This document shows positions 11,751-48,937 of a stretch of DNA of 50,662 bases, one piece after another (the stretch's first letter is position 1; each line of letters opens with the position of its first letter). Made by a program: the position numbers and the translations under genes. This DNA comes from Oscillospiraceae bacterium (lineage in GTDB: Bacteria > Bacillota > Clostridia > Oscillospirales > CAG-272): the NCBI GenBank assembly GCA_009779295.1, contig WREN01000001.1, positions 1 through 50,662 of the forward strand. Reading direction: 5' to 3'. The notes beneath the pieces are model-generated. The model made no database searches, was not told where the DNA came from, and worked only from the letters and a program-made list of their open reading frames with translations.

Positions 11751-12158
11751 ATGGCATTCGTAAACGTACCTAAAGACCTCAATAAGATCAAGAACAAGGC
11801 GTTGTTCAACCTAACCGTCAGGCAGCTTGTGTGTTTCGGCGCGGCGGCGGCAATCGGGATACCGGTATATATCCTCACCCGCGTCGCAATCGGCGGCACG
11901 GGCGCTGCTTTATTGATGATCGGGTTGATGCTGCCCTGCTTCTTCTTCGCCATGTTTGAGAAGGACGGCCAACCCGCCGAAAAAGTCCTGCGGAACTATA
12001 TCCGCACCCGTATATACTTTCCGGGCAAGCGCCCGTACAAAACGGAAAACCTATACGAAATACTGGAAAAGGAGGGAAAGAGCCTTGCAGAACAAGAAAC
12101 AGCAGCGACGCCGGACGCCGCAGGCAGTATCGGCAAAAGGAATCAGTCATATAAATAA
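11751..12158 (+). CDS. PrgI-family (VirB3-like) T4SS membrane protein
   Basis: MAFVNVPKDLNKIKNKALFNLTVRQLVCFGAAAAIG plus two TM segments, immediately upstream of VirB4. Confidence 0.8.
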   Translation: MAFVNVPKDLNKIKNKALFNLTVRQLVCFGAAAAIGIPVYILTRVAIGGTGAALLMIGLMLPCFFFAMFEKDGQPAEKVLRNYIRTRIYFPGKRPYKTENLYEILEKEGKSLAEQETAATPDAAGSIGKRNQSYK

Positions 12159-30800: not shown

Positions 30801-33800
30801 GCGCGCCCGTCCCATCGACGCCGAGCCTGATTGGGTACACCTCGGGCTGACCCACGGCGGCATATCCGTCAACAAGTATTACTCGGACAACCCCGAAATG
30901 ATACTCGGAACAATGGCTCCCGACGAACGTATGAACAGCAAATTCGGTACTGACAGCTTCACTGCTTGTTTACCCATAGAAGGAGCGGATTTAGCCGAAC
31001 AGTTAAAAACCGCATTGCTTAACATACAAGGCCAATACACCATTGAGGAATTGGACGACATTGAAGGCATTGACAACCACGCTATACCCGCCGACCCGCG
31101 CGTCAGAAACTTCAGTTACGCGCTCGTGATCCCGGCTGATAAATCGAATGAAGAAGCTGAAGGGCTGGCATATATTACGAAAATCGGCGATGATACGGTT
31201 ATTGGCGCTGGCCGGGTATATTACCGCGAGAACTCGATGATGTACCCGGTGGAATTGCCGGCGGCGACGCTGGAGCGCATCAAGGGTATGATCGCCCTGC
31301 GCGACTGTGTGCATGAACTCATCGATCTACAGCTTGACGAATGGACAGGCGAAGCGGCGATAAGAGCGAAACAAAATGAATTGAATATCCTGTACGACCG
31401 GTTCAACGCCGAATACGGGCTGATTAACTCACAGGTGAATAACCGGGCGTTCAACGCGGATTCCGCGTATTACCTGCTCTGCTCACTCGAAATACTGGAC
31501 GAGGACGGACAGCTTGAGCGCAAAGCCGATATGTTCACTAAACGCACAATCAAACAACGAACAGTCATCGAACACGTTAATACGGCAAGTGAAGCGCTCG
31601 CGGTTTCACTCTCCGAAAAAGCTAAAGTGGATATTGAGTATATGGCCGGTTTGACCGGATTTACGAACGACAAGCTCATTGGTGACTTAGAGAACGTTAT
31701 CTACTTTGATTTCGGCAACCCAAACAAATCCCTTCCGCCGTTCGACCCTGACAAAATGAAGATGTACGAAAAGTTCCCGCTTGTCACCGCCGAGGAGTAC
31801 CTCTCAGGCAATATCCGTGAAAAACTCTTTAAAGCTGAACGGTTCAATGAAACTTTCGGCGATGAGGTTCATGGCGTAGATACCACTATAAACGTGTACG
31901 CTCTGAAAACTGCCATGCCCAAAGACCTTGACCCGTCCGAAATAGCCGTGCGGCTCGGCTCCACTTGGATAGCGCCGGAGTATGTGCAGCAGTTTATGTA
32001 CGAATTGTTAAGAACAAACTGGCGTATGCGGGAAAGCCATCAGGTCAAGCACCATGAGTACACCGGCGAATGGCAGGTAACGGGCAAAGGCCGTTCGTTG
32101 TACAACGACATACTCGCTAACGTGACCTACGGTACAAACCGCATGAACGCCTATCAGATCATCGACGACACCCTCAACCTCCGCGATGTACGTGTATACG
32201 ATCACGTGAAGGATGCGGACGGCAAAGAGAAGCGCGTACTCAATAAAAAGGAAACGACGCTCGCGCAGCAGAAGCAGGAGCAGATCAAGCAGGCGTTCAA
32301 AGACTGGATATGGCAGGAGCCGCGGCGACGGCAGACGCTCGTTAAATTGTACAACGAACGGTTCAACAGCGTCCGTCCGCGCGAATACGACGGCAGTCAC
32401 ATCACTTTTTCTGGCATATCGCCGGAGATCACCCTGCGTAAACATCAACTGAACGCGATAGCGCACGGACTATACGGCGGTAATCTGCTGCTCGCCCATG
32501 TCGTCGGCGCAGGCAAGACTTTTGAAATGGTCGCTATTGCAATGGAGGGCAAACGCCTCGGGCTGTGCCATAAGTCATTGATGGCCGTGCCTAACCACCT
32601 GACCGAGCAATGGGCGGGCGAGTTCCTGCGGCTTTACCCTACGGCGAATATACTTGTGGCGACTAAAAAAGACTTTGAAATGCGCAACCGAAAAAAATTC
32701 TGCGCCAAGATAGCCACCGGCGACTACGACGCTGTTATCATCGGACATTCGCAGCTTGAAAAGATACCCATGTCAAGTGAGCGTCAGGAACGGCTCATAC
32801 GTGAACAGATATGGGAGATAGAGCAAGGCATAGAGGAATTAAAACGAACGCAGGGTGAACGCTTCTCTATCAAACAGCTTGAAAAGACGAAGAAGTCGCT
32901 TTTGGCGCGGCTGGAAAAACTGCTCAATGCAAAAAAACGCGACGACGTTGTTACTTATGAACAATTAGGAGTAGACAAGCTGTTCATTGACGAAGCGCAC
33001 GGCTTCAAAAATTTGTTCATGTATACGAAAATGCGGAACGTTGCGGGGCTTTCGACTTCAGAGGCGCAGAAATCCAGCGACTTGTTTATGAAATGCCGGT
33101 ACATGGACGAACTGACAGGCAACAAAGGCGTAGTTTTCGCCACGGGTACGCCGATCAGCAACAGTATGACCGAAATGTACACTATGCAGCGGTATCTTCA
33201 ATTTGATACCCTCGCGGAAAAAGGCTTAACGCACTTTGACAGTTGGGCGTCCATCTTCGGAGAAACGCAGACTTCGATAGAACTCGCGCCGGAGGGTACG
33301 GGCTACCGCGCGCGGACGCGATTCGCGCTGTTTCATAATTTGCCCGAACTAATGTATATGTTCAAAGAAGTGGCCGACATACAGACGGCGGATATGCTCA
33401 ACCTGCCCGTACCGGAAGCGAAATATGAGAATGTCATCGTACAGCCGTCCGAACGGCAAAAGGAAATGGTGCAGGAACTGTCAAAGAGAGCCGCGCTTGT
33501 CCATTCAGGGCGTGTAGACGCGAAAATCGACAATATGCTCAAAATAACGACTGACGGGCGCAAGATCGGGCTTGACCAGCGGCTGATCAACCCCCTGCTC
33601 TCCGACTTCGAGGGCAGCAAAGTCAACGCCTGCACCGATAATGTGTACCGCATATGGGACGAAACAAAAGACGGAAAACTTACCCAACTCGTGTTCTGCG
33701 ACTTTTCCACGCCGAACAAGAACGGGCGTTTCAACGTCTACGACGACGTCAAAACCAAATTGTTGGAACGCGGCGTACCTGAACACGAGATAGCTTTTAT

Positions 33801-35085
33801 CCACGACGCGGACACCGAAACGCGAAAAAAAGAACTTTTTGCCAAAGTACGTCAGGGTAGTGTACGTATACTGTTCGGCTCTACATTCAAAATGGGGAGC
33901 GGGACAAACGTGCAGGACAGGCTCATCGCCATACACGACGCCGACTGCCCCTGGCGGCCTGCCGATCTGGAACAGCGCGCCGGCCGTATCGTCAGGCAGG
34001 GCAATAAGAATGAAGAGGTGCAGATTTACAGGTATGCGACAAACGGCACTTTTGATTCGTACCTCTGGCAGACGGTGGAAAAAAAGCAGAAATTCATTGC
34101 GCAGATAATGACTTCTAAATCTCCCGTGAGAAGCTGCGAGGATGTGGACGAAACCGCCCTCAGTTATGCTGAAATAAAAGCGCTCTGCGCGGGCAACCCT
34201 CTTATTGCCGAAAAGATGAACCTCGACGTGGAAGTGGCGAAACTGCGTATGCTGAAATCCGAACATCAGAGCCAGCATTACCGTTTGGAGGACAACCTGA
34301 TGAAATATTACCCGCAGCAGATAACAGCGGTCAGGGAACGTATATCGGGTATAGAAAAAGATATTATTATGTACAACGAACAGAACGAAAAGTTCACGGA
34401 TGCGCGGCCTTCGCTGGACGGAACGGCATCGACCGCTGCGGCGAAATTCGCCGGTATGACAGTCAACGGCGTGGAATATATGGAAAAGGAGCCCGCTGCC
34501 AAAGCCCTGCTCGAAGCCTGCAAGGGCGTTACCGAAAAGAAAGATTTACCTGTCGGTAAATATATGGGATTCGATATGAGCCTGCAATTCGACGGGTTTC
34601 ACAAGACGTTCAGCGTCCTGCTGCGCGGGAATATGAGTTATACGACGGAACTCGGAACGGACGCTTTCGGCAATATCACCCGTATCAACAATACGTTGGC
34701 GGATTTACCTAAAAAACTCTCCGGAGCGAAATCACAGCTTGATGCGTTGTACCAGCAGCAGGAAGCGGCGAAGCAGGAGCTTGAAAAACCTTTTGCGCTG
34801 GCTGACGAACTGGCTGAAAAAGAAGCGCGGCTCGCGCTCTTGAACTCCGACCTGAACATAGACGGCGACGGCGGATTCGACGTGTTGAACGATGACAGCT
34901 GGGATGACGGAGCGGAGGAATACGAATTGCCTGACCCTGACGATGAAGAACCTGATGACGAATACGAACGGCAGACAGCCTCCGCGAAAAGCGCGAAGCC
35001 TTCTTTATTGGAAGGGCTGCGTTCGTTCAACCCTGAACGGCAATCTCCGGTATCAGGTAAAAAATCCCCGGAACTCGACATCTGA
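24853..35085 (+). CDS. polyvalent conjugative-element protein (3410 aa): ArdC-N-like module, repeated polyvalent-associated domains, MutS-domain-I-like module, N6-adenine DNA methyltransferase, SNF2/DEAD-like helicase
   Basis: One frame is open for 10.2 kb. MTase motif I EPSCGIGNFFG (~30.33 kb) and motif IV GNVPFG (~30.52 kb). Helicase motifs GAGKTF (~32.51 kb), FIDEAHGFKN (~32.99 kb) and QRAGRIVRQGN (~33.98 kb). Confidence 0.9.
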   Translation: MATKLQFYSVVAERAAKEVIAGSENWQSFLTVAARLYKYPFPDQLLIYAQRPDAIACAPIETWNESFNRWVRRGSKGIALIDDSGDRPHLRYVFDVSDTEPSQYRSRPVQLWEMRQEHREPVLEYLSGIYDDLGDTLADSFRSIARQLAREYYIDNASEIRYRAEDSFLEDFDDFNFGVAFEGALTNSVAYTLMSRCGFDTSDYFDDDDFRYIYEFNTPDMVYALGTAAGELSQQVLRDIELVIKKYERQQAAERSVTNERTQDERQSPDILPERGLSSSRPDTGRTAGIGGTVRQVREDTQSVSEGKPDDDLQYDAAEGNVVSASAGNGGTGDREVETGNEDIDVTGQPARQSGRSDGLDGGDERPEGTGGGTGTERIGLRLENQTYSQVGNSAISETLSTSSVTLDEVDSILRDGGNEKNSVLRIAAYFAKDMAQVENADFLRREYLLGQWGRNFESGGKGYQFGSRQTSVWFNEDGIRIGRGKSAKLATDYALITWEQTAERVKQLYDAGMYVSHDVLDEALYNESMERADDVKEIYSNISRGLNDIQYELKKAMTKEQQETVKDDWKIRRYLIRGLTELGNTAEKALFGEAKVSTDEIMRLYNETFRLSEEIPQEWEFGGSHTETVEIIAELLRDKGTISGNEIRQGIGYNELSEYNIILTRLREDLSAFEAEPDAPIHFYRNPHRVLSDLEKAGLPVYGFPAAEYTPTGYTRFITDDEVDRYLTGGSHYNESKLRILSNFLHDHTPKEQQDFLKNEYGHGGGSWVDGGWYGADPGKGITLKRSGCDDVNLNWNQAARRIENLIRGGRYISRDELGRIFNYERLMLARSINNFYYNMPDEYQRPFAKELDFYNPKEDEWAALNGLLYDPEKIDALLGEMRRIYDNTPEEDRYYENRKTGYERLTAFRDGRYTLFPGLETLPDPDATATRPQTQIPFAPFVPPSAVQNEQLTFFDFEQPPLLTSVEEQQAILEKAAETSAGDNTTVVSLLVNQDEIDAQLLNISDENKTRIMAQFAINPRSREAVQLVREIYGGIKETLALSWTALHIQIAELAEAGRFSIIESKPTPYEDYLAIKSADPDNIVFYQIGDFFEVYNGDAETAARVLDILLTSRSAAGQTERIPMIGIPFNRLPDYTNKLYEAGYGITISSLNNDGIREITSLPPKTREQAAYIPEPEITVSVPQYTVGDRFEYNGKPHEIDRVGDFIRLRNIGTPSEYPIFDYMSVSRQDFERRLSDGEIVITTSEDVSIELAELDFDTAAQTVLERVMQDADFAETLENAQSRGALRNPLNTALDKIMNDHGQDETHILRAYHNDDDFNDRLFDFVYRRSWETKTARDAAVPEPITVTEQTGIETPVRDIPISPDVPPPVFFVDWDAAQYDVANLDNANSDLVDVLDNGLIGQSDKETVLSMLANGSTNDEITALIADVYSRQIDTMTLTSGETADYSVMPDGIVIDILDRFNTKLFFTWADIAPVVRALAVGWQAGQTTELEIPVTAEDKPQTSYIKGQRIVLDLSEKLRDSFSFVHDAPFIAGEFVIDDIDGDDITVSASYIDSNGENARLTVNLTRSEAERYTVKPVADKLYDEISPSDETTTAYYLLRYPNGIGAGAVLSYADLALIKEQADAYVICAEACHLSGDDMARYNIEFRKMPRDWYLLPEVVREQIHEIKPEYENQWNDLYTNLELTGEFEPLSEKLRLEASQNFRITDDHLGEGGAKTKFRYNLDAIHVLKDIEFEKRAATPDEQQILSRYVGWGGLPQAFDPDNKQWENEYLELNAALTPEEWESARASTVNAHYTTPTVIRAVYETVERLGFRTGNILEPSCGIGNFFGLLPESMSNSKLYGVELDSVTARIAKQLYPKANIKEMGFEKTDTPDAFFDLAVGNVPFGDYGIADKRYDKHHFSIHNYFFAKTLDQVRPGGVIAFLTSKFTLDEKNPNVRKYIAQRAELLGAVRLPNNAFLKNAGTEVTSDIIFLQKRARPIDAEPDWVHLGLTHGGISVNKYYSDNPEMILGTMAPDERMNSKFGTDSFTACLPIEGADLAEQLKTALLNIQGQYTIEELDDIEGIDNHAIPADPRVRNFSYALVIPADKSNEEAEGLAYITKIGDDTVIGAGRVYYRENSMMYPVELPAATLERIKGMIALRDCVHELIDLQLDEWTGEAAIRAKQNELNILYDRFNAEYGLINSQVNNRAFNADSAYYLLCSLEILDEDGQLERKADMFTKRTIKQRTVIEHVNTASEALAVSLSEKAKVDIEYMAGLTGFTNDKLIGDLENVIYFDFGNPNKSLPPFDPDKMKMYEKFPLVTAEEYLSGNIREKLFKAERFNETFGDEVHGVDTTINVYALKTAMPKDLDPSEIAVRLGSTWIAPEYVQQFMYELLRTNWRMRESHQVKHHEYTGEWQVTGKGRSLYNDILANVTYGTNRMNAYQIIDDTLNLRDVRVYDHVKDADGKEKRVLNKKETTLAQQKQEQIKQAFKDWIWQEPRRRQTLVKLYNERFNSVRPREYDGSHITFSGISPEITLRKHQLNAIAHGLYGGNLLLAHVVGAGKTFEMVAIAMEGKRLGLCHKSLMAVPNHLTEQWAGEFLRLYPTANILVATKKDFEMRNRKKFCAKIATGDYDAVIIGHSQLEKIPMSSERQERLIREQIWEIEQGIEELKRTQGERFSIKQLEKTKKSLLARLEKLLNAKKRDDVVTYEQLGVDKLFIDEAHGFKNLFMYTKMRNVAGLSTSEAQKSSDLFMKCRYMDELTGNKGVVFATGTPISNSMTEMYTMQRYLQFDTLAEKGLTHFDSWASIFGETQTSIELAPEGTGYRARTRFALFHNLPELMYMFKEVADIQTADMLNLPVPEAKYENVIVQPSERQKEMVQELSKRAALVHSGRVDAKIDNMLKITTDGRKIGLDQRLINPLLSDFEGSKVNACTDNVYRIWDETKDGKLTQLVFCDFSTPNKNGRFNVYDDVKTKLLERGVPEHEIAFIHDADTETRKKELFAKVRQGSVRILFGSTFKMGSGTNVQDRLIAIHDADCPWRPADLEQRAGRIVRQGNKNEEVQIYRYATNGTFDSYLWQTVEKKQKFIAQIMTSKSPVRSCEDVDETALSYAEIKALCAGNPLIAEKMNLDVEVAKLRMLKSEHQSQHYRLEDNLMKYYPQQITAVRERISGIEKDIIMYNEQNEKFTDARPSLDGTASTAAAKFAGMTVNGVEYMEKEPAAKALLEACKGVTEKKDLPVGKYMGFDMSLQFDGFHKTFSVLLRGNMSYTTELGTDAFGNITRINNTLADLPKKLSGAKSQLDALYQQQEAAKQELEKPFALADELAEKEARLALLNSDLNIDGDGGFDVLNDDSWDDGAEEYELPDPDDEEPDDEYERQTASAKSAKPSLLEGLRSFNPERQSPVSGKKSPELDI
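25628..26002 (+). CDS. tnpV: TnpV-family protein gene nested out of frame inside the polyvalent ORF
   Basis: 124-aa ORF in a different frame from 24853..35085. AAAGGAG at 25613-25619 lies 8 nt upstream of the ATG. The product carries TnpV-like landmarks GDYLLPDL, AYLKENR, LFPHL, DDPMGWTAAMN and AEELVLNELVYA. Confidence 0.65.
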   Translation: MNEPKMNDNRLTYSLNGDYLLPDLILDEPPELAEPLGRYARIRKAYLKENRTMTYNTMLLKETLFPHLRETEELATARLKQVMKILMSRDSLPDKADDPMGWTAAMNALKAQAEELVLNELVYA

Positions 35086-36998: not shown

Positions 36999-37337
36999 GC
37001 TGATGGAATCAGTCGCAGCAGACCCGCCGAAGGCGGGGCTTAAACGGGTGCGCAGCTCCCGTGGGGTATTAGGGGCAGAATCCCCTAACAAGCGGTAAGT
37101 AGGTGGAACCCCACTTCCATTGCTTGCAAAACGGTATCGGAACGTTACGATAATAAATTTCGCGTAAACTGACAACGGCAACTACAATAGAACCAAAATA
37201 AACCCTGTGACACGAGAAAATCAATCGATTTTCTGTGCGTACAACAAGCGTTCAATGTACTTCCAATTTTATTATTGTACGCCTTATCTGCGTCCAATGT
37301 AAGTATATAATAAAAAAACTAAAGGAGAAATATTCAT

Positions 37338-38252
37338 ATGATAATAGCTATAGACCACGGAAATAAGCAAATCAAACTGCCGGGAGGACATGTCTTTACT
37401 TCCGGCCTGCGCGAAAGCGACGCCAAACCGCCGTTCGGCGACGACGTTCTGAAATACAAAGACAAATATTATTCGCTCTCGGACAAGCGTATACCGTATA
37501 TGCGCGAAAAATTTATCGACGACCGGTTCTACATCCTCACCCTGTTCGCCATAGCTTTTGAAATCGAGGACACAGGGCGTTACGATCCGGGCGTAATGCG
37601 CGTCCATGTCTTGGCCGGACTACCTCCCGCTCATTTCGGAACGCAGTACGAACGATTTGAAAACTATTTCAAGCGCGGCGTTGATGAATTTGAGTTTCAC
37701 GGCAAGAACTTCAATATTAATATATATGATGCGACGGCTTACCCGCAGGCGCTCGCCGCCGCTGTTCCGGTAATTGGGGAAATTAGCTCCCTGCCCAAAG
37801 CGGTTGTTTTGGATATAGGGGGATTCACGGCTGATTACCTCATATTAAAACATGGCCGTGCTGACTTGTCGGATTGCGATTCCCTTGAACATGGGGTTAT
37901 CATCATGTATAACCAGATCACCGCGAAAGTAAACTCCGACTTGGATTTGCTGCTGGACGAATCCGATATTGACACGATCCTGCAAGAAACGCCGAACGAT
38001 TTTCCTGATAACATTAAGCGTATCGTACATGATACGGCACAAGTATTCGTGTCAGACTTGTTCGGGAAATTACGTGAACGGGCGATTGACCTGCGCTCCG
38101 GTAAAACCGTATTTGTCGGCGGCGGCTCTATTCTGCTCAGGGAGCAGATAGAAGCGTCCGGAAAGGTCGCTTCGCCAATTTTCGTGGATAAAATATCAGC
38201 CAACGCGAAAGGGTACGAGTTGTTGTACAGAGCGTTCAAATCGAGGGGGTGA
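37338..38252 (+). CDS. ParM/StbA-like actin-fold segregation ATPase
   Basis: Actin-fold motifs IIAIDHGNKQIK (phosphate 1), VVLDIGGFTADY (phosphate 2) and VFVGGGSILL (adenosine). Confidence 0.75.
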   Translation: MIIAIDHGNKQIKLPGGHVFTSGLRESDAKPPFGDDVLKYKDKYYSLSDKRIPYMREKFIDDRFYILTLFAIAFEIEDTGRYDPGVMRVHVLAGLPPAHFGTQYERFENYFKRGVDEFEFHGKNFNINIYDATAYPQALAAAVPVIGEISSLPKAVVLDIGGFTADYLILKHGRADLSDCDSLEHGVIIMYNQITAKVNSDLDLLLDESDIDTILQETPNDFPDNIKRIVHDTAQVFVSDLFGKLRERAIDLRSGKTVFVGGGSILLREQIEASGKVASPIFVDKISANAKGYELLYRAFKSRG

Positions 38253-38650
38253 TACGCTTGGACGATAAAAAATCCGCCACACGGTTTACGATACAATTCA
38301 ACCGTACCGACCACGCTCACCTCCGCGCGGCAGACATTCTTAACCAATACGAACGGTTCGGCAAAGCGCGGCATATCGTCAACGCCATACTTCATTATGA
38401 AGATTGTGAACACCGTGATATGCAGCCATCGGCGAAAATTGACGAGAAGTATATCGAAACGGTTGTCAACCGGATATTGCGCGAAAACTGTACAAGCGGC
38501 GATGATGTCCGGCTTGATTCCGATGATGTAAAACGGGAACATAACCAAAAGCCCCTTGACGAGATTGATTTTGACGGCGCGATGGAAATGCTGGGCGAAG
38601 ACGGCTTAAACGCCGTGGCGGACGCGCTGGATATGTTTAGAAAAAAATGA
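38249..38650 (+). CDS. hypothetical protein, possible ParR-like adaptor
   Basis: Overlaps the ParM-like stop (GTGA); an alternative start is TTG 38258. 133 aa. The assignment rests on position only. Confidence 0.45.
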   Translation: MIRLDDKKSATRFTIQFNRTDHAHLRAADILNQYERFGKARHIVNAILHYEDCEHRDMQPSAKIDEKYIETVVNRILRENCTSGDDVRLDSDDVKREHNQKPLDEIDFDGAMEMLGEDGLNAVADALDMFRKK

Positions 38651-38827
38651 TAAAAAAACATGGCGGGTTTGTTTTAATCCAACCCGCTGTGCCTTTGAAT
38701 ACTTTTTTTCAATATTTTATATGCTTATACATAGCGCGAAAATACCGAACAGGGCAACCTTTTGGGAGATATATAAATAAAGAAGAACGGAATCACCCGT
38801 TCTTGATAGTGCTTCCATTAAATTAAC

Positions 38828-38856
38828 TTTCGTAGAGTATTCAATTCTATGAAAAA
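38828..38856. repeat. left 29-bp inverted repeat containing a core-type recombinase site
   Basis: TTTCGTAGAGTATTCAATTCTATGAAAAA matches the reverse complement of 40246-40274 at 28 of 29 positions. Internal architecture is CGTAGAG-TATTCAA-TTCTATG (7-7-7). Confidence 0.85.
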
Positions 38857-39063
38857 TATGGTATTATTATATATCACTATAATTATAAAATATAATTTTA
38901 AATTTGTCAATACTATGTAGAAAATTAATGTTTTTTTAAGAGAAAATGTACGATCAGTTAGCATCTGACGGCGATATACGGGTTATGACGCGCGAAAAAG
39001 GTTTGCGCAACCCATTTATCGCCGTCAAATTTTAAGTCAAAATTTTTGAAAGGAATGATATAT

Positions 39064-40182
39064 ATGGCAAAACACGGAGAAAACATTTATAAGCGCAAAG
39101 ACGGGCGATGGGAAGCGAGGGTAATCAAGGGATATACTGAAAATGGCAAGGCTCTATACGCCTACATATACGGGCGGACTTATAGGGAAGCAAAAGAAAA
39201 AATCTTTAATTCGTTAACCTACACTATCGAAAATGTTGTTTCAGCAAAAACAACAACCGCGCCAAATTTCGAGAGTGTATTGGTTTTGTGGCTTGACAGA
39301 AAAAGGATCGGAATAAAAGAATCCTCATATGTTAAGTATTTCAACCTCATGAATAATCACATCAAGCCTTATTTGGGGAAATATCCAATATCAAGCATAG
39401 ACAGCGCGGTATTAAATTCATTTATCGCAGAAAAACTTAAAATAAACGGTTTATCGGAAAAAACGATGAAAGACATTATGACAGTTATAAAATCTGTTCT
39501 GCGGTTCGCAAAGGAAGAAGGATTAATTACAGAGATTGATTTTAAAATTAATCTCCCACGCGAAAAACAAAAGGATATGAGGGTTCTGACAAAAGATGAA
39601 CAAACCCTGCTCGAAAAATATTTGTGTTCCGAAATCGATGAGAACAAACTCGGAGTTCTTGTTTGTTTGTATACCGGGTTACGGGTCGGAGAAATTTGCG
39701 CGTTGAAATGGAGCGATATTTCATTGGATGAAAACACGCTCACAGTGAGCCGCACAATGCAGAGAATACAAACGTTAAACACTACCTACGATACAAAAAC
39801 CAAAGTGTTTGTTACCGATCCGAAAAGCGACTGTTCCGCGCGCGTTATCCCTCTGCCTGATTTCTTAATTAAAAAATTAAAAATGTTTCGTCCCGCGTAT
39901 GAAAACGCATATCTTCTCACCGGTAAACCAGAACGGTATATCGAACCGAGAACCTATCAAAACCGGTTCAAATCATACATTACGGGTAGCGGAATCAAAC
40001 ATGCAAATTTCCATTGCTGCCGACACACGTTTGCCACGAGATGTGTTGAGGTTGGCTTTGAAATAAAAAGTTTAAGTGAAATCCTCGGTCATGCTAACGT
40101 CAATATTACTTTAAACAGATATGTGCATCCGTCTTTTGATTTAAAACGCAGCAATATGAACAAGCTCGCTTGTTTTTATTGA
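39064..40182 (+). CDS. tyrosine site-specific recombinase/integrase with N-terminal Arm (AP2-like) DNA-binding domain
   Basis: N-terminus MAKHGENIYKRKDGRWEARV. Catalytic region LYTGLRVGEICAL (R), CCRHTFATRC (H-x-x-R), LGHANVNITLNRYVH (H...Y). The track ORF starts at TTG 39046; I prefer ATG 39064. Confidence 0.9.
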   Translation: MAKHGENIYKRKDGRWEARVIKGYTENGKALYAYIYGRTYREAKEKIFNSLTYTIENVVSAKTTTAPNFESVLVLWLDRKRIGIKESSYVKYFNLMNNHIKPYLGKYPISSIDSAVLNSFIAEKLKINGLSEKTMKDIMTVIKSVLRFAKEEGLITEIDFKINLPREKQKDMRVLTKDEQTLLEKYLCSEIDENKLGVLVCLYTGLRVGEICALKWSDISLDENTLTVSRTMQRIQTLNTTYDTKTKVFVTDPKSDCSARVIPLPDFLIKKLKMFRPAYENAYLLTGKPERYIEPRTYQNRFKSYITGSGIKHANFHCCRHTFATRCVEVGFEIKSLSEILGHANVNITLNRYVHPSFDLKRSNMNKLACFY

Positions 40183-40214
40183 TTACGCCGTCAAATTTAG
40201 AACGCCCCCATAAA

Positions 40215-40250
40215 AAAGCATTGATAAATCACGGTTTATCAATGCTTTTT
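40215..40250 (+). terminator. rho-independent terminator downstream of the recombinase gene
   Basis: AAGCATTGATAAA pairs perfectly with TTTATCAATGCTT across loop TCACGG, followed by TTTTT. The T-run is also the first 5 nt of the right inverted repeat. Confidence 0.85.
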
Positions 40251-40274
40251 CATAGAGTTGAATACTCTACGAAA
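40246..40274. repeat. right 29-bp inverted repeat containing a core-type recombinase site
   Basis: TTTTTCATAGAGTTGAATACTCTACGAAA with architecture CATAGAG-TTGAATA-CTCTACG. An extra half-site CTCTACG lies at 40288-40294. Confidence 0.85.
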
Positions 40275-40330
40275 ATATTTTTTTAAGCTCTACGAAAAAA
40301 ACACTTAATTAAATAATGTGAAATCGAAAT

Positions 40331-40406
40331 CGCTTAACCACGTTTCGCGTCAGCAACGAAGCTGAAGAAAGAGAACCTCAACTCCAAAATAAAAGAGGCA
40401 AAAAAA
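40331..40406 (+). promoter_or_regulatory. conserved leader/promoter module, copy A (upstream of the giant surface-protein gene)
   Basis: The 34-nt block at 40371-40404 matches 49112-49145 at 33 of 34 positions. The upstream 28-nt block matches at 21 of 28. Confidence 0.6.
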
Positions 40407-40422
40407 TTTGGGAGAAATGAAA

Positions 40423-43400
40423 ATGAAAAAAAGGATATTACATAAAATAATAACTTTTACTCTTGCGTTCGTGATGATTGCTGGGTTTACTCCAGCATTA
40501 CCAGTACATGCAGCAACTTCTCTTTGGGTAGGTAATGGAGGCTTACCATCTGGTTCAATTGTAGAAGAAGGAATATCTTTTTGGTGGGGTTTGGATATTA
40601 TAAGAGATGATTATGGTAGCATACCGAACCTTGATATAAAGGTTGATGTCATTAATGGCAAATTACCAACTGGCATATACCACGACAGGAATGGCGTATT
40701 TGTAGGTACTCCTGTAGAACCAGGTACATTTACTTTTTCTCTCAGAGTAACTCAAATAAGCACTGGGTTTACGGGTACACTTCTTAACCATACAATCATA
40801 GTCGTACCCCATCGTCCTCTCATTCCAACTGCGGCAATAACCATTGTCGAACCAATAACAGGCAATGCGCCAAATGTATCAGCTAACGGAACCGGTTTAT
40901 TTACTGTTGGCACAGTATCATGGACTCCGAATCATAACCCGTTCCGTGCAGGAACATCTTATACGGCACAAGTTACGTTGACAGCTAACGGAGGTTATAA
41001 GTTTTCAAACTCAACAAATGCTACGATAAATGGGCAAATTGCAAGAAACGTATCATTGGGAGGTCTACTGGGTAACGGAGAAATAACGATATCATATACG
41101 TTCCCTTCCACCCCCCCTATATCCATTGGTGAACAGCAAGGCAGGTTATTCCCCGGTATTCCCGGAACTGTTGTTTTCCCTATAAATGGTATACCAGACG
41201 GCAGTTACAATGATGTAACGGTTAACAATCTTCCGCCCGGCGTAACAGTTGAAAGACCAATTGTTATTTCGAATAACACTGGTATTTTGAAATTAACAGG
41301 AAGCACGGCTACAATCACTGGAATAACTTCAAACTTGAGGTTAACAATTAACGGAAACATTTCAGAGCCGTTCATTTTATATGTGACTGATATTAACGAA
41401 CCAATAGAAATATTTACGGCTGAAGAATTCAACACTGTTGTTCGAGATTACGGTCGCTATCCGTATAGTCATTTCAAAATCATGAATGATATTGACCTCT
41501 CTGAAATTAACAACGGTATTTGGGAACCGATTGGTACGACATCTCAACCATTCAGAGGCACAATTGAAGGTCGTTTTAATATGATTTCGGGCGTTAATGT
41601 TGCGCCGGGTAGTTCCGCTTACGGTCTATTTGGGTATAGCGAAGGAATTATTAAAGATTTAGGAGTGGAATACACATCTCGTTTTGGCGGAGTTGCCGGA
41701 AATAACAGCGGAAGTATTGTAAACAGTATTACCAAATTTGAACTCAGAAACCCAACATCATGGACAGGCAACAACCGAATTGCAGACAAGGTCGTGCTTA
41801 TAGACCTTTCAAGCCCAAATCAATCTAAACTGATCAACAGAACCCTCACAATAGCTGATACTGTTGAAACCGTTGTATTCAGAGGACGAGATACAATATA
41901 TGAAGGGCTTAGTATTGTTATTGAAGGCAATACCACTGTGGTTTTAGATGATTTTAGATTTCAAGCTCGCCCCGGCGAACATGCGATTAATTTTATCGGA
42001 GGCGTTGGCTCTAATCCTGCTATTATTTCGACAGGAAGCCGAAACAACAATTTAATACAAGGCTGGCACACGCATAATGCGGTGCAGAGTAACGGCAATT
42101 TATTTATTGGCGGCAACGCAAACTTAACCGTCGATTATAAAGAACCGAGCGCAGATATTCAAAGGAATGGGCTCGATGCGATTCATTTGAATGGAAATTT
42201 AACCGTTGCATTAGACGCTGCCTTGAAAGCGCAGGGTGGCAATGGCGGCGATGGTGGAACGGTACAAAAAGCCGGATCAGCAGGTGATAACGGTGTTAAA
42301 GGTGGTGACGGCGGCGCAGGGATTCACTCTTTTGGCTTGAATATTCTTAATTATTCAGAAGTAATTGTTATAGGAGGCAACGGCGGAAATGGAGGTCATG
42401 GTGGCAATGGCAGTCATGGTACAAATGGCAATAAAGGGTTAGATGCGATAGATTTTAATCGTGATATAATTCCCACTTTGCTTGGTTCACCTGAAAACGA
42501 CGGAGAGGATGGAGGTACCGGAAATCAAGGTGGTAACGGCGGTGATGGGGGCGACGGCGGAAAAGGCGGAGACGCCATACAACTTAGTACGAATCTTTAT
42601 TATTATTCACAACAAAGCTGTATTCGTATGATTGCTGGTCAAGGTGGAAACGGCGGTCGAGGCGGAAGTGGCGGCAACGGCGGCAACGGTGGCAACGGTG
42701 GCAATGGTGCTAATGCTGGATTGCTCGGTGGTAGGGGTGGCAATGCCGGAAATGGTGGTCGAGGTGGTAACGGAGGAAAAAACGGTGATGGAGGTTGGAA
42801 CGGGTCTTTATTATATGTTAATGGGCAAACTATTTATGGCGAATCACAAAAATATGGCGGAGGAGCTTATACGGACAGAACCTCTTTCGGTTCAGGTGGC
42901 AACCCTGGTTTCCCAGGTAGAGGTGCAGATGCAATGCTTCGTTGGTTTCCTGTTATTTCCGCAGGTATAGACGGAAGTGACGGAAACCAAGGTAATCCGG
43001 GGGTTTCTGGTTCATTGGGTGGCGAAGGTATACCGCGGCCAATGAACGAGGAGGAAATGACCGGCTTTCTTGGGAATCTTATACCATCTGATTTTTGGAA
43101 CACAATGCGTGTTGAATTCCAGCGGCGGCGTGTTGGTGCGGACAGGCTTATTATAGCAAGGATGCCATCAAGAACAACTTTCATTGCTGGTGAGATTTTT
43201 CGTCCTATAAGTAACTGGACTGATATAGAAATTGGACGCATGATAAACGGAGAATATGAACAGATATATAATCTTGGACAAGTGAACTTTTCACTTAATA
43301 ATTCTCCGTTAAACGTTTTTGACCGAGAAATTATAATAACGTCAGGTGCGTTTACTGCAAGAGTTCCGATAACAGTTAATCCTGTTTCTACAACGGAACT

Positions 43401-46191
43401 TATCCCTATTTTGCCGCCTGACCGTGGTCTTGTTTTTGAAGAAGGTAATCAGCTTGTGCCAACGCTACAACCTACTCCAGAATTGCGAACGTTGCATGGC
43501 TTAAGCTTAAGACGTATATTAATTAACGGTAATGAAAATATAATTGAAGGCGAAGATATTTTCTTAGGAATGCCAACGCCCAGACAAGATTATCTTTTTA
43601 GCACACGGGCGCGCATTGTTGATAAGCGTGAAAATGCCATAGATTACTTAAGAAATGCTGGCGGAAGACCACTTGACGAAGAAGATAAAGAAATAATAAT
43701 TGAAGATGGATACTGGTTTAATAATGATTTTATCGTTACCGCCAGTGTTTCAATTCCAATTGTTGTAAAACCAAGACCGGCAGCTGCTGCACCTATTGCG
43801 AGTGTTGATTCTGGCGCAGTTGCTATTGGTACGGAAATAATACTTACAAGCGATATGCCGAATATTGGATTATCAAACGGAAGCCGAAGCGTATTTATTC
43901 GATATACCACAAATGGCTCTGAACCAACGCGAATATTAAGCAGTACAGTATTTGATGGGTCGCAGCCTATTAATATTAACGGTAATACGAACATAAAAGC
44001 GAAAGTTTTTTATACCGAAGAAATTGAAGTCTGCGCAGAAAGAAATTGGGTTGAATATAGAACAACAGAGAGTGGTACAGTCACGTTTAGTTATACGTTA
44101 TTAGATCGTATAGAAATTGAGCATCCAAACGATATATTGGTGCAGGGGTTAGATTTTGGTACGCACCCACAAAATGTTATTATTAACCCGGATACAATTA
44201 CAATAAAAAACACAGGGGGTACACCGACTGGAAATATAAATATAGAGGTATATAACTTAGAGGGTTTACCTCATGAAAACTTTAAACTTTTAAACGAATC
44301 CATTACTGGAATACCGGTCGGAGGATTTGCTACATTCGAAATACAGCCCGGAACTTCAGCTGGATTGTCGGCAGGGCAACACGTTGCAATTGTTGTTTTG
44401 AGCGGAATTAATATGGAACCGATAATGATAGCAACATGGGTTGATATTTTAACGGAAAGCGATAACGCACAGATACCAAACATAATTAACCATCCACAAA
44501 ACGCAACTGTTACGGTCAATGCGGCGTATAATCTGATCGTTTCGGCAAATGTCACGGACGGTGGTAGTTTAAGTTATCAATGGTACAGCAATACAATTGC
44601 GTCCAATACGGGTGGCACGATTATACAGGGAGCGACGAACGAAACATTTACCGTGCCTACAGGTATAGCAGGAACATATTATTATTACGTCGTAGTAACA
44701 AACACAAACAACGATGTAGGCGGAATAAAAACAGCGACAGTGACGAGCGACTTCGCTATAATAACGATTCTTAATATACTTGACCCTTACGAACCACAAA
44801 TCAACATTACAAACGCAACAGGACGGGCAGGCGAAGAGATAACGCTGACAGTTACGATGGAAAACATACCGCAAATTGCGGGATATGGCATTTCGATGAC
44901 TTATGACCCTAATGTGTTTACATACATCTCAGCAGCGCCCGGCGATATTCTGCCGGAGAGATTCATCGATCAAATAAGGCCAAATAATCGGATGTTTTTC
45001 AGTTCGTATGACGACGACGGCAATTTTGAAACAGGTACAACATTATTTACGGTAACTCTTAAAATAGACGACAATATAGGAGAAGGCGTTATCGAGCCCG
45101 CTGCACTATATTTCTCATATTTTAATACAGTGATTGAGGGCTTCGATACTGGCGATACGATATACCCTGAGATAAATCAGCCAGTTATCACGGTCATCAA
45201 CGTTTTCTACGGCGATGTGAACGGCGACGGCAGGCTGAACATTTCCGACAGGACAAGGATGAACCAATTCTTCTCGGACAATCTACCAGAAGGTGCAGTA
45301 TTTATAGAGGCAAACGCAGACGTAAACGGCGACGGACGATTGAACATATCAGACAGAACCGTGATGAACCAGTTTTTCGCGGGTACGAGAGATTATCTCG
45401 GGCCGCAGATAACCCCAGCGTTTTTCAGTTTCATTTTACCCACACTTATACCAGTAAATGAGCCGGAGATACTTGTATCTAACGTTTCCGGTAAGGTCGG
45501 CGATACAGTTAGCTTAACCGTATCGATAAAAGATAATCCAGGACTATCAGGTTACGGCATATCGATGCGTTACGATGAGAACTTGTTAACCTTCATATCA
45601 GCGTCGGCGGAAGATATACTGTATGATAATTTCGTCGTTATTGAGAAGCCAGACGGACGAATCCACTTCAACTCGTATAACGATGACGGCGAGTTCGAAA
45701 CCATTGAAGAGCCGGAAGACGAAGAGGAATTTGTAGATGAAACAATATTATTCACGGTGACGTTCAGAATCAACGAGACAGTTTCTGGAGGCGTTAACTC
45801 TATAGGAGTAGTAGAGTTCTATTACGATAATTTCGTTATCGAAGGATTCGCGATATGCGAGGCCGATGGAATCACGCCGAAAACGATATATCCGGAGATA
45901 CCGTTAGGATTTGTTACAGTAGAGGTTGGTAATGCGGTTACGATTGTGAACGCGGTTGCGCAGTACATCAGCATAGCAGAGACATCGAAAAATTCCGGAG
46001 TATGGGCGTTGACGTTTAGAGTAACGGAAACGTGGTCGAACGGTGAGACGAAAGTAGTGCCGTACACGATCAACATCAAAGCTAACAACGCGAATGTAGA
46101 TGGCAGATACAACCTCGGAGCGTATATTTTAATTTACGATATCAAAGGTAACGGCTCTAACATCAGAGAGTTTAGGGTTATACTGAAGTAA
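40423..46191 (+). CDS. giant secreted surface protein: Ig-like domains, GLUG-type module, Gly-rich GGNGG repeat region, cohesin - dockerin - cohesin, conserved C-terminal module
   Basis: Signal peptide [29 protein letters not shown]. Dockerin [22 protein letters not shown]...[21 protein letters not shown] (45205-45390). Two cohesin-like modules (~44.81-45.20 kb and ~45.47-45.93 kb). ATG 40423 follows GGGAG by 8 nt; the track start is TTG 40408. Confidence 0.85.
42230..42810 (+). repeat. coding low-complexity region of (GGNGG/GGDGG)n tracts alternating with short hydrophobic strands
   Basis: The translation reads GGNGGDGG..., [43 protein letters not shown] and [28 protein letters not shown]... 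Confidence 0.85.
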
Positions 46192-46354: not shown

Positions 46355-48937
46355 ATGCAAATAATAAGAAAAAAAGTTTTTTGTGTGTTTTTAACTTTGG
46401 CATTGGTATTTAATATGTTTATAATATTTCCGATAAATACATTTGCGGCAGAATCGGAAAATGTACCAACTGTCTTTGTATCAAGCGCACAAGGCAAACC
46501 AGGCGATCTCATATCCTTAACCGTTTCTTTTCAAAATAATCCGGGATTATCGGGATACGGTATCACATTGAAATTCAATCCGAGCAAATTAACTTATGTT
46601 ACATCGAATCCGGGTGTAGTATTATCAGATAACTTCACCCGCACAGTAAGAACCCAATTGAACGAAATCTTTTTTGTTTCTTATGATAACGATGGAAATT
46701 ATGTTGACGGAGAAAATTTGTTTTCAGTTTCATTCATTATAGATCCAAATTTAACAGACAGGGTTATTGAAGGCGAAGATATAATGTTCTTCTATAAAAA
46801 CATTATACTTGAAGGGTTCGAAATACCTGATGGCGGGGGCGATACCATATATCCTACAATAATACAACCCAGAATCGAAGTAGAAAATGATGAATGTGAA
46901 CACGAATACGACGATGGTGTAGAAACTACAAAAGCAACTTGTATTGAAGAAGGGTTGATGACTTACACTTGCTCTTATTGCGATGATAGTTATACCGAGC
47001 CTATATCGATAGACCCAAATAACCATGTCGGAGGCACATATGAAGAAGAGATAATAGTTGCAACATGTGTCGTTGAGGGTCTTATGGGTATCTATTGTAA
47101 TAGTTGCAATGAGTTGCTTGATACTCGGATAATACCAATAAAAACTGAACATCCTGGCGATACATATGAACAAATAATCACTGCGGCGACATGTGTCGCT
47201 ACGGGAATAATGGGTATTTACTGCACTGATTGTGATTATTTTCTCACTACAAATATTATACCGATAAACCCTGAAAATCATGTTGGCGGTACATATGAAA
47301 ATATAATTACTAATCCAACTTGTATTACCAAAGGTATCATGGGTATCTATTGTTCCGGGTGCAATGAATTACTTGAAACGGAATCAATATTAGGAGGTCA
47401 TCCTGGAGGTTCTTATCAAAATGAAATTATTGCGGCGACTTGTATTTCTGAAGGAACAATGGGTATATATTGTTCTGAATGTTACGAATTAATCGAGACA
47501 GAGACAATACCGATAAATCCGGACAACCATGTAGAAAGTTCATATACACAGGAATATATTCCGGCGACATGTATTACTGAAGGAACGCTGGGTATTTATT
47601 GTGCTGGTTGTCATGCTTTGATCGAAACAGAATTTGTAGTAATAAATCCAAACAACCACATCGGCGAAACATATAGAAGCGTAATTATTCCGCCGACATA
47701 TGATGCTGAAGGTTTAAGGGGTATTTATTGCTCAGGCTGCCACGAATTGCTTGACACAGAAATAATCTCTCCAATAGATTGCAAACACGAAGATGGTACA
47801 TATGAAGAAGTCATCACGTCCGCTACATGCGTTGCTGAAGGATTAGTAGTTACTCACTGTAATAATTGCCATGATGAACTCGGAACTGTTATTATACCGA
47901 TCAACCCAAACAACCACGTAGGCGGAACATACGAAGATGAAATCACTGCCGCTACATGTGTTGCCGAAGGTTTAATGGGTATTTACTGTAATAGCTGCGA
48001 TGTTCAACTTCATACAGCATCGACTGTAATAAACCCGAATAACCATGTCGGTGGCACATATGAAGAGGTAATCACTACCGCTACATGCGTAACTACAGGA
48101 ACAATGGGTATTTATTGCAATGACTGCGATGAATTGCTTGAAACTGATACGATACCATTAAATCCGATTAATCACGCTGGCGATACATACAGAGACGTTA
48201 TTACTATTGCGACATGCGCTACCGAAGGCGTCATGGGTATTTATTGCTCTGACTGTAATGCATTGATTTATACAGAGCCTATTGCGAAAAACCCTGATAA
48301 TCATGTTGGTGGGACATATGAAGAAATGATAGTTGCTCCGACATGCATAGCCACAGGAATAATGGAAGTTTATTGTAATAGTTGCCATGAATTGCTTGAA
48401 ACTGATACAATACCAATAAACCCGATTAATCATATTGGCAATACATACAATAATGTGATCACTGTTTCGATTTGCGTTACTGAAGGCGTCATGGGAATTT
48501 ATTGCTTTGACTGTAATGCATTGATTTACACAGAACCAATTGCGATAAACCTTGATAATCATGTTGGCGAAACTTATGAAGCCGTTATTACGGAAGCGAC
48601 TTACACGAACGAAGGATTAATGGGTATCTACTGCTCTGGTTGCGGTGCGTTGCTCGAAACGGAAGTTATTCCGATAAAACAAGACGAGCAAAAAGACTGC
48701 GACTTTTTACGTGAAAGAGCAGCTGGAATACTTAAAAACGGTTTAAAAACGGATAATCTACGCCTCGTTGGTAAAGTGTTGACGTTAGTTATTGATGGCA
48801 GAGAATTCATTCTCAGTAAAAATGCTAATAATCGTAATATCGAGGGCGAAATCCCTCTTGGCGATGGTTGCTATCTAAGATTCGACATCAAGGGTAACGG
48901 TTCAAATATTAAAGTTTTTGAAATTATTAAAAAATAA
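46355..48937 (+). CDS. secreted cohesin-domain protein with 14 tandem His/Cys repeats and the shared C-terminal module
   Basis: GGAGG lies 8 nt upstream. Signal peptide, cohesin-like [43 protein letters not shown], then the repeats. Confidence 0.85.
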   Translation: MQIIRKKVFCVFLTLALVFNMFIIFPINTFAAESENVPTVFVSSAQGKPGDLISLTVSFQNNPGLSGYGITLKFNPSKLTYVTSNPGVVLSDNFTRTVRTQLNEIFFVSYDNDGNYVDGENLFSVSFIIDPNLTDRVIEGEDIMFFYKNIILEGFEIPDGGGDTIYPTIIQPRIEVENDECEHEYDDGVETTKATCIEEGLMTYTCSYCDDSYTEPISIDPNNHVGGTYEEEIIVATCVVEGLMGIYCNSCNELLDTRIIPIKTEHPGDTYEQIITAATCVATGIMGIYCTDCDYFLTTNIIPINPENHVGGTYENIITNPTCITKGIMGIYCSGCNELLETESILGGHPGGSYQNEIIAATCISEGTMGIYCSECYELIETETIPINPDNHVESSYTQEYIPATCITEGTLGIYCAGCHALIETEFVVINPNNHIGETYRSVIIPPTYDAEGLRGIYCSGCHELLDTEIISPIDCKHEDGTYEEVITSATCVAEGLVVTHCNNCHDELGTVIIPINPNNHVGGTYEDEITAATCVAEGLMGIYCNSCDVQLHTASTVINPNNHVGGTYEEVITTATCVTTGTMGIYCNDCDELLETDTIPLNPINHAGDTYRDVITIATCATEGVMGIYCSDCNALIYTEPIAKNPDNHVGGTYEEMIVAPTCIATGIMEVYCNSCHELLETDTIPINPINHIGNTYNNVITVSICVTEGVMGIYCFDCNALIYTEPIAINLDNHVGETYEAVITEATYTNEGLMGIYCSGCGALLETEVIPIKQDEQKDCDFLRERAAGILKNGLKTDNLRLVGKVLTLVIDGREFILSKNANNRNIEGEIPLGDGCYLRFDIKGNGSNIKVFEIIKK
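46895..48685 (+). repeat. 14 tandem coding repeats of about 129 bp (about 43 aa each)
   Basis: Unit consensus: H-x-G-G-T-Y-E-x-x-I-x-x-A-T-C-x-x-x-G-x-M-G-I-Y-C-x-x-C-x-x-L-x-x-T-x-x-I-P-I-N-P-x-N. Confidence 0.9.

Follow-up and report, generated by a model that had tools for sequence, protein, structure and literature searches.

A probable self-contained promoter-inversion switch, with an integrase-type recombinase inside the invertible segment, in an Oscillospiraceae conjugative element and related Clostridia

Among described inversion switches, that of E. coli fimS, to which ipuS and hyxS are related, is served by the tyrosine recombinases FimB and FimE. In the accounts of fim drawn on here, these enzymes are about 200 aa long and lack an arm-binding domain, and their genes lie outside the 314 bp invertible segment. 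In the pneumococcal ivr/cod system, the tyrosine recombinase PsrA/CreX is encoded within the DNA that it inverts. We analysed a 50,662 nt contig (WREN01000001.1, assembly GCA_009779295.1) from an Oscillospiraceae bacterium, referred to below as the window, with all coordinates given as window positions. An earlier reading of its letters (the original prediction) had singled out a tyrosine recombinase gene bracketed by inverted repeats as a candidate invertible switch. We consider it likely that this segment, 38828-40274, is a self-contained site-specific promoter-inversion switch.

The segment is fimS- or RecV-like in function, Hin-like in topology and of the lambda, Tn916 and Tn1549 type in its enzyme. 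With fimS it shares a tyrosine recombinase, a short segment bounded by inverted repeats, an outward promoter, an adjacent surface operon and asymmetric flanking sites that may bias direction. Unlike fim, with its external recombinase genes, it holds a 372 aa enzyme together with its leader and terminator inside 1.45 kb. The RecV switches of Clostridioides difficile (cwpV, flgB and cmrRST) resemble it as tyrosine recombinase systems for phase variation in Clostridia, with short repeats upstream of surface or signalling genes, and cwpV, like the cargo gene in the window, encodes a very large surface protein. The published RecV repeats appear unrelated to the TTTCGYAGAG arm of the sites described below. 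In the Hin, Gin, Cin and Pin systems, too, the invertible segment contains the gene for its recombinase, and the outward promoter of Hin drives flanking genes; however, these are serine recombinases with a Fis-bound enhancer, whereas the window enzyme has the tyrosine recombinase hexad and fold. The Tn1549, Tn916 and lambda integrases share with the window enzyme, as modelled, an N-terminal domain of three strands and a helix, and short repeated motifs away from the core of the window locus are placed as arm sites would be. Unlike the window segment, for which the predicted product is an inversion, they integrate and excise whole elements between direct att sites.

Clostridial “group 139” invertons are about 150-230 bp long and contain only a promoter or leader, with the recombinase elsewhere or merely nearby (PMC11892184). 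The family to which the window locus belongs departs from this RecV and “group 139” type, since its recombinase is always inside the segment. A predicted fimbrial switch in Providencia stuartii, which is Gammaproteobacterial and uncharacterised, has the recombinase inside an 844 bp segment with 14 bp repeats (PMC5903667). Type I restriction-modification “epigenetic invertons” are described with a tyrosine recombinase gene inside, or bracketed by, the inverted DNA (PMC7672463). Those systems shuffle hsdS coding segments and not a promoter. The original prediction had regarded an internal recombinase as an architecture better known from the serine invertase Hin; the Hin-like topology holds, but PsrA/CreX and the P. 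stuartii switch are precedents.

The arms of the repeat, at 38828-38856 (TTTCGTAGAGTATTCAATTCTATGAAAAA) and 40246-40274 (TTTTTCATAGAGTTGAATACTCTACGAAA), are complementary at 28 of 29 positions (97%), exactly as first described. They are separated by 1389 nt and bound a segment of 1447 bp. On the plus strand, the left recombination site (IRL, 38828-38856) consists of an outer arm (38828-38837, TTTCGTAGAG), the spacer TATTCAA (38838-38844) and an inner arm (38845-38856, TTCTATGAAAAA). The right site (IRR, 40246-40274, plus strand) has its inner arm at 40246-40257, the spacer TTGAATA at 40258-40264, which is the reverse complement of the left spacer, and its outer arm at 40265-40274 (CTCTACGAAA). 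The original prediction had proposed a 7-7-7 layout, of which the 7 nt spacer between inverted arms stands; comparison across the family gives binding arms of about 10-11 nt (TTTCGYAGAG plus T) instead of 7. The IRL outer arm is unchanged throughout the close clade. The 21 nt core occurs only twice in the window, allowing up to three mismatches, where 100 shuffles led us to expect none. An additional copy of the outer arm (CTCTACGAAA) lies in the fixed flank at 40288-40297 on the plus strand, 23 nt outside IRR. Its half-site CTCTACG at 40288-40294 had been spotted at the outset, and a copy about 22-23 nt outside the right site is kept in the related loci L005, L006, L097, L098/L099 and L105-L107. 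It is a candidate accessory site and could bias the direction of switching.

Strong support comes from relatives. A search of species-representative genomes with a 25-sequence alignment gave roughly 600 or more GTDB matches, among which 80 Clostridia loci were listed, their recombinases being 40-52% identical. Among these listed matches, 60 of 80 loci have the recombinase bracketed by an inverted repeat with 18 or more matched bases, about 175-320 nt upstream and 60-195 nt downstream of the gene, and 54 of the 60 are anchored on TTTCGYAGAG. Together with the window, L004-L006 and Agathobacter rectalis, which carries the same architecture, this makes 59 anchored loci. In every one of the 59 the 7 nt spacer is identical in both copies, as had been claimed for the window. 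There are 51 distinct spacers overall, and mismatched left and right pairs share a spacer in 20 of 3422 comparisons (0.6%). Between the two sites of a locus, identity is 96% for the outer arm and 80% for the inner arm. Partner core sites of a homology-dependent tyrosine recombinase would be expected to behave in this way. For enzymes of this kind, identical asymmetric spacers in opposite orientation predict inversion, and inversion is predicted here because the spacers are asymmetric and oppositely oriented.

Exactly two core sites are present in 46 of the 59 loci, and the remainder have extra tandem copies in the same sense. None of the 59 anchored loci, the window included, has an oppositely oriented third site between promoter and recombinase gene, and the recombinase is therefore always inside the segment. 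Nine loci (L048, L067, L018, L028, L039, L042, L043, L070 and L078) have two to three tandem same-sense full core sites, 33-103 nt apart, on one or both sides; these might allow alternative inversion end-points.

The same comparison bears on a different explanation, namely that the locus is a fixed, non-switching relic, or that its enzyme serves the conjugative element for multimer resolution or integration at one site, in which case the second copy would be irrelevant and the outward product just a short terminated transcript. We regard this as unlikely. Inverted sites with perfectly co-varying spacers are kept in 59 loci, many of them chromosomal, and resolution at a single site would not conserve them. 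Nor do the sites resemble the direct att sites around a whole element that are the hallmark of integrases: the cores are inverted, 1389 nt apart, and enclose the recombinase gene only and not the whole element, as attL and attR would.

The segment contains a second conserved component, which the original prediction overlooked when it listed the contents as the recombinase gene, an AT-rich upstream region and a terminator, although it was right that there is a single open reading frame (ORF). A predicted sigma-70 consensus promoter (38882..38910, minus strand; TTGACA at 38910-38905, a 17 nt spacer and TATAAT at 38887-38882) sits in the AT-rich left end. It is directed away from the recombinase gene, reads leftward through IRL and scores 12/12 against the consensus. 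With inverted core sites (10-7-10) on a short segment and a predicted outward promoter toward a flanking gene in one orientation, the segment shows two structural hallmarks of an inverton. An outward promoter of at least 10/12 is present in 48 of 64 loci and a 12/12 match in 15, while the best plus-strand candidate never exceeds 10/12; in most loci the -35 hexamer starts 55-66 nt from the left site. This conservation of promoter position and strength is a further point against a relic or resolution enzyme. In an alignment of the left ends of eight loci, identity is 58% overall and the promoter spacer has diverged, but the promoter hexamers are invariant. The other invariant blocks are the outer arm TTTCGTAGAGTA, the inverted pair TTTGACGGCGATAT...TATCGCCGTCA and the ribosome-binding site.

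Beyond IRL lies a predicted intrinsic terminator (38783..38804, minus strand) with a 9-pair stem followed by CTTTATTTAT, which has a z of -2.9 when folded in the outward transcript. Equivalent AGAACG...CGTTCT hairpins stand outside the left repeat in L003, L004 and L006. In the present orientation the outward transcript would be about 95-110 nt long, ending at 38804..38783. The predicted terminator of the recombinase gene (40210..40253, plus strand; 19 nt arms at 40210-40228 and 40235-40253, 95% complementary, with a 17 bp stem and z of -4.3) overlaps the right repeat, as it also does in L004 and L006. Because its U-run is the inner arm of that repeat, an overlap already recognised in the original prediction, this terminator moves with the segment. 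Between IRR and the presumed cargo gene is a 148 nt leader (40275..40422, plus strand), in which a sequence scan of the plus strand found neither a sigma-70-like site nor a terminator; upon inversion it would become part of the 5′ untranslated region. We read the present orientation as OFF, since the promoter would run into the outside terminator and the cargo gene has no recognisable promoter and would be shielded by the recombinase terminator.

The short outward transcript could also be taken for a product in its own right, the promoter, site and terminator together encoding a regulatory small RNA of about 100 nt, with the repeats acting at the RNA level. The predicted transcript would be discrete (about 95-110 nt) and has a good terminator, and the layout recurs in L003 and L006. 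However, nothing in the transcribed stretch is conserved except the core site and the stem of the terminator. An Rfam scan of 38000-41000 also gave nothing meaningful, its sole match being a sub-threshold miRNA model on the terminator. A small RNA would leave the second site 1.4 kb away, the co-variation of spacers and the operons at either end unexplained, and we think it very improbable.

For the inversion switch we propose the following course. The integrase-type recombinase would bind both core sites through their arms of about 10 bp, which flank the same 7 bp spacer in opposite orientation, and strand exchange within the spacers would flip the entire segment. In the OFF state, as sequenced, the promoter would read through IRL into the terminator at 38804..38783. 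In the inverted ON state it would read through the right site and the 148 nt terminator-free leader into the 1922 aa cohesin/dockerin gene. The flanks of the segment are ...ATTAAATTAAC on the left and ATATTTTTTTAAG... on the right. Inversion would be expected to create a left junction of ...TTAAC, TTTCGTAGAGTATTCAA and CTCTATGAAAAAGCATTGATAAACC..., that is, ATTAAATTAAC-TTTCGTAGAGTATTCAA-CTCTATGAAAAAGCATTG, in which the left flank is joined to the right end of the segment, and a right junction of ...ATAATACCATATTTTTCATAGAA, TTGAATACTCTACGAAA and ATATTTTT....

The flanks also matter for the possibility that the 29 bp repeats are the ends of a small mobile element, such as a tyrosine recombinase transposon or an insertion cassette. 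The cassette has very different cargo neighbours and occurs on plasmids, conjugative elements and chromosomes, and this variety of cargo and replicons is clear evidence of horizontal spread. In L004 and L016, long inverted repeats extend beyond the core, and many homologues are found on contigs of about 1.4-1.6 kb, as multi-copy elements are. Nevertheless, the window has a single copy, no target-site duplication is visible in the flanks (...ATTAAATTAAC / ATATTTTTTTAAG...), and the exact 21-mer of the core was found in one other metagenome contig and in none of the species-representative genomes, a rarity that rules out a high-copy element, although no flipped junction turned up among these matches either. 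Orthologues lie at the same chromosomal site across samples; a conserved terminator, the extra arm and the cargo leader are located outside the repeats, and oppositely oriented identical asymmetric spacers predict inversion. The original prediction had named transposon terminal repeats at many unrelated sites as the finding that would overturn it. What we found was a core confined to a single locus and orthologues at fixed positions, and neither many unrelated insertion sites nor target-site duplications. A mobile element therefore seems to us quite improbable.

The recombinase gene (39064..40182, plus strand; 372 aa) is the only ORF between the repeats. Its assignment to the tyrosine recombinases, already made in the original prediction, agrees with Pfam (Phage_integrase PF00589, 9.7e-26; Phage_int_SAM_3, 1.9e-11) and with the catalytic domain pattern R-K-H-R-H/W-Y: all six catalytic residues are present (R207, K254, H317, R320, H343 and Y353), and none of them varies among 25 homologues. 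The protein stays below the threshold of every curated NCBIfam model. The AlphaFold model, built from the 25-sequence alignment (mean pLDDT 75.7), has strands at residues 8-10, 16-24 and 30-37 and a helix at 40-49, followed by a disordered linker and the core-binding and catalytic domains. The Pfam AP2 match is faint (E 0.17). Foldseek placed the Tn1549 integrase first (1e-14), and its alignments to full-length lambda Int chains span 352-376 columns; by sequence, too, the Tn1549 integrase is the closest of the solved structures (6EN0, 1.5e-18). Given the N-terminal sheet and helix domain and the full-length lambda Int alignment, the modelled architecture is that of an arm-binding element integrase, a three-domain (heterobivalent) enzyme of the lambda, Tn916 and Tn1549 type and not the compact FimB/FimE form. 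That its nearest structural relatives are mobile-element integrases is what a resolution or integration enzyme of the conjugative element would lead one to expect.

An enzyme of this build suggests a role for short motifs around the recombinase gene. In 32 of 64 loci CCGTCA precedes the start codon by 10-70 nt, and in 30 of 64 it follows the stop codon within 25 nt, often in tandem pairs about 12 nt apart. In the window, the downstream copy (40188..40193, plus strand) begins 5 nt past the recombinase stop and is a candidate arm-type site on the right side. Upstream, an inverted pair (TGACGG at 38966-38971 and CCGTCA at 39022-39027) closes a leader hairpin (38966..39027, plus strand) with a fold of -37.5 kcal/mol and z of -4.2, and the block is invariant in the close-clade alignment. 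The pair is a candidate for arm-type binding sites, an attenuator, or both. As arm-type or accessory sites, the CCGTCA motifs and the extra outer arm would organise the complex in which inversion takes place, and a directional bias could result; in the proposed mechanism they probably shape the synaptic complex. The wider leader hairpin (38958-39035) is followed by a short U-run, and its inner stem shows compensatory changes among the window, L003, L004, L005 and L006. It may attenuate recombinase expression besides, or instead of, binding protein.

Comparison of neighbouring genes provided evidence on flipping. In 49 of 61 loci the gene next to the right end is directed away from the segment, and all clustered neighbour families that occur on both sides are oriented away from it on both. 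An operon that, judged by reading its sequences, seems to encode a TetR-like regulator, a SipW-type signal peptidase and TasA/camelysin-like secreted proteins lies on the promoter side in five loci (L020, L028, L031, L039 and L043) and at the recombinase 3′ end in seven (L017, L018, L021, L034, L042, L051 and L077). The leader between core and TetR gene is homologous in promoter-side L028, L031 and L043 and in far-side L018, and the homology extends as far as the outer arm, which places the breakpoint of the two configurations at the core. Promoter-side and far-side states interleave in three clades of the neighbour-joining recombinase tree, from which it follows that orientation changed repeatedly. 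A fixed relic or a resolution enzyme would not account for both configurations around the same operon. No pair of loci with both flanks swapped was found, only one-flank swaps, the reason being that conservation between species does not extend to the second flank. The flipped configuration that the original prediction hoped to see in related genomes was thus recovered as an operon at either end across species, but not as an exchange of both flanks.

Four other loci (L019, L023, L024 and L044) have XRE-family regulators on both sides, each pointing away from the segment and belonging to different families left and right. These switches may toggle between two regulators rather than act as a simple ON/OFF device.

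A second indication of flipping concerns a paralogous switch (L098 6750-8240). Contig L101 (Logan, SRR10512951) corresponds exactly to its repeat-to-repeat segment. We took the Logan assembly of SRR10512951 to use k=31, and since a graph of that k cannot be interrupted by a 29 nt repeat alone, both ends of L101 were probably attached to alternative flanks. This paralogue comes from sample ERZ27257304, which also contains the window, and lies there on another conjugation-gene contig (k141_5144356); its recombinase is 68% identical to that of the window, and an XRE gene, a 1673 aa multi-domain sensor kinase gene and a GGDEF regulator gene lie downstream. Two other candidates for assembly evidence were set aside. 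The short contigs L120-L122 were not counted as junctions, as their ends align inconsistently with the repeats, and the 99 nt terminal inverted repeat of L016, considered as an assembly signature of inversion, is better explained as a true repeat of at least k (k99).

Several observations weigh against the inversion switch. A flip of the window's own segment was not seen in ERZ27257304 or SRR10512951, both of which have the sequenced orientation; the Logan contigs L125 (window 37018-38997) and L002 (38969-40403) and the source contig run unbroken through the repeats without a graph break. Three well-sampled Lachnospiraceae orthologues likewise show one orientation at all 25 places listed, with the recombinase toward an FHA-PP2C-kinase operon, and no flipped long contig was found among carriers of the identical recombinases P0095 (10 places), P0118 (5), P0098 (10), P0019, P0026 and P0038. 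The orthologue places are the longest contigs, which favours unbroken majority states. From the single orientation at 25 places we conclude that switching is rare, strongly biased, conditionally selected or selected against in assemblies, and this uniformity, there and in the two samples, is also what a fixed relic would show. In A. rectalis and a related Lachnospiraceae species, both abundant in the human gut (L087-L096 and L108-L119), the cassette occupies a fixed chromosomal site upstream of a conserved operon for an FHA-domain protein, a PP2C phosphatase and a Ser-Thr kinase. The inverted repeats of L004 (1-181/1592-1771, 93%) and L016 (1-99/1527-1625, 100%) reach 100-180 nt past the core. 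At 93% identity, the extended repeats of L004 are real. In both loci the same terminator-like flank therefore stands on either side of the segment, and a simple ON/OFF promoter model leaves this unexplained. Finally, all promoter and terminator calls are consensus or sequence matches, and the parts played by the CCGTCA motifs and by the additional outer arm are inferred.

Decayed copies also exist. L102 (1-1605), L103 and L104 keep the recombinase gene and the right site and have neither left site nor promoter; in L102 the gene is convergent with a relaxase gene. They are probably a decayed, locked derivative, and the existence of such one-site copies lends the relic explanation some support. 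From the structure, the spacers, the promoter and the two configurations across genomes we nevertheless infer that the window segment flips, as originally proposed, although no flip was seen at its own locus in the two samples that carry it.

Close homologues with the same layout come from metagenomes (L004, L005, L006, L097, L098/L099 and L105; recombinases 64-82% identical). L003 is a partial, diverged copy with the same layout, with about 74% DNA identity over the 5′ part of the recombinase gene; its 29 nt site is 100% identical to the IRR of the window. At L003 415-460, between the promoter -10 hexamer and the core site and at the 5′ end of the outward transcript, an 8 nt unit GCAGATGA is repeated about four times, a possible second variable element of the slippage type. 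A cultured isolate, Vescimonas fastidiosa MM35, carries a perfect 29 nt repeat of the same type on its plasmid pMM35_02 (L124; 80.1-81.6 kb). There the outward promoter (TTGACT-17-TACAAT) faces a hypothetical gene and then a giant dockerin-repeat protein, an arrangement whose layout corresponds to the ON configuration with cargo of the class seen in the window. Further cultured carriers include A. rectalis, Butyricicoccus pullicaecorum DSM 23266 and Clostridium sp. AF27-2AA. Giant dockerin proteins adjoin the switch both in pMM35_02, on the promoter side, and in L005, on the OFF side. In plasmid and phage collections the relatives found were all distant (identity no higher than 39% and 49%, respectively) and annotated as “site-specific integrase”. 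The repeat in Ruminococcus albus pRUMAL02 (L123) is weak (24 nt, 88%).

The window as a whole is a conjugative element, with genes for ParA, ParB, a Toprim-domain protein, a coupling protein (T4CP), VirB6-like and VirB4-like proteins, an M23 peptidase and ArdC, and in addition a group II intron reverse transcriptase, a 3410 aa helicase-like protein, MobC/relaxase and a ParM-like actin. That a conjugative element requires a resolution system speaks in favour of assigning this task to the recombinase. The switch and its cargo come after the relaxase/ParM block. The presumed cargo gene (40423..46191, plus strand) encodes a secreted scaffoldin-like protein of 1922 aa with cohesin (1e-20), Dockerin_1 (1.2e-7) and Fn3-associated domains, in agreement with the neighbouring surface protein of about 1920 aa that the original prediction had described. 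A second cohesin protein gene (46355..48937, plus strand; 860 aa, Cohesin 3.1e-7) begins 164 nt downstream and is probably co-transcribed with it. Elsewhere in the window, the group II intron reverse transcriptase/maturase ORF (14863-16782; RVT_1 2.2e-39, GIIM) stands directly behind the VirB4-like ATPase ORF (11956-14121) of the conjugation module, and the intron perhaps splits the transfer operon or borders on it. The 3410 aa protein is encoded by one ORF at 24853-35085, with MutS_I, SNF2-related and helicase domains, upstream of MobC/relaxase.

Across the family, the genes beside the cassette fall into several classes: giant dockerin/cohesin surface proteins on conjugative elements, TasA/SipW fibre operons, FHA-PP2C-kinase operons and XRE regulators. 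We tentatively suggest, as one possible reading that goes well beyond the switch itself, a horizontally spreading “plug-in” cassette for phase variation in Clostridia. In such a cassette a heterobivalent integrase would have turned invertase, with arm-type sites inside the segment and a core arm in the flank biasing direction, and the neighbouring genes would be switched ON and OFF or their regulators toggled. This family of putative self-contained integrase switches, which looks widespread in gut and rumen Clostridia, is apparently undescribed; a full-text search found no description of it, although few subscription journals were covered and absence is not proof. To our knowledge, standard inverton finders cap the distance between repeats well below 1.4 kb. 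Surveys could have missed the family if the cap lay below its 1.4 kb segment length. In one published survey (PMC11892184), the median for a Clostridia-like genome was just 3 invertons.

Should these cassettes flip, phase variation would be much commoner than surveys suggest among the dominant Firmicutes of the gut and rumen, including A. rectalis, Butyricicoccus, Oscillospiraceae and Lachnospiraceae. The switches precede genes for the cell surface, fibre adhesion, biofilm matrix and signalling, some of them on conjugative elements, and they could make populations heterogeneous in how they colonise, in their sensitivity to phages and in plasmid-borne adhesion. An arm-binding integrase acting as an invertase would, if true, be a new regulatory use of this enzyme class. 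It would also make the cassette a compact, single-gene, spacer-programmable switch, for which 51 natural spacer variants exist and which may be of use for synthetic biology in anaerobes.

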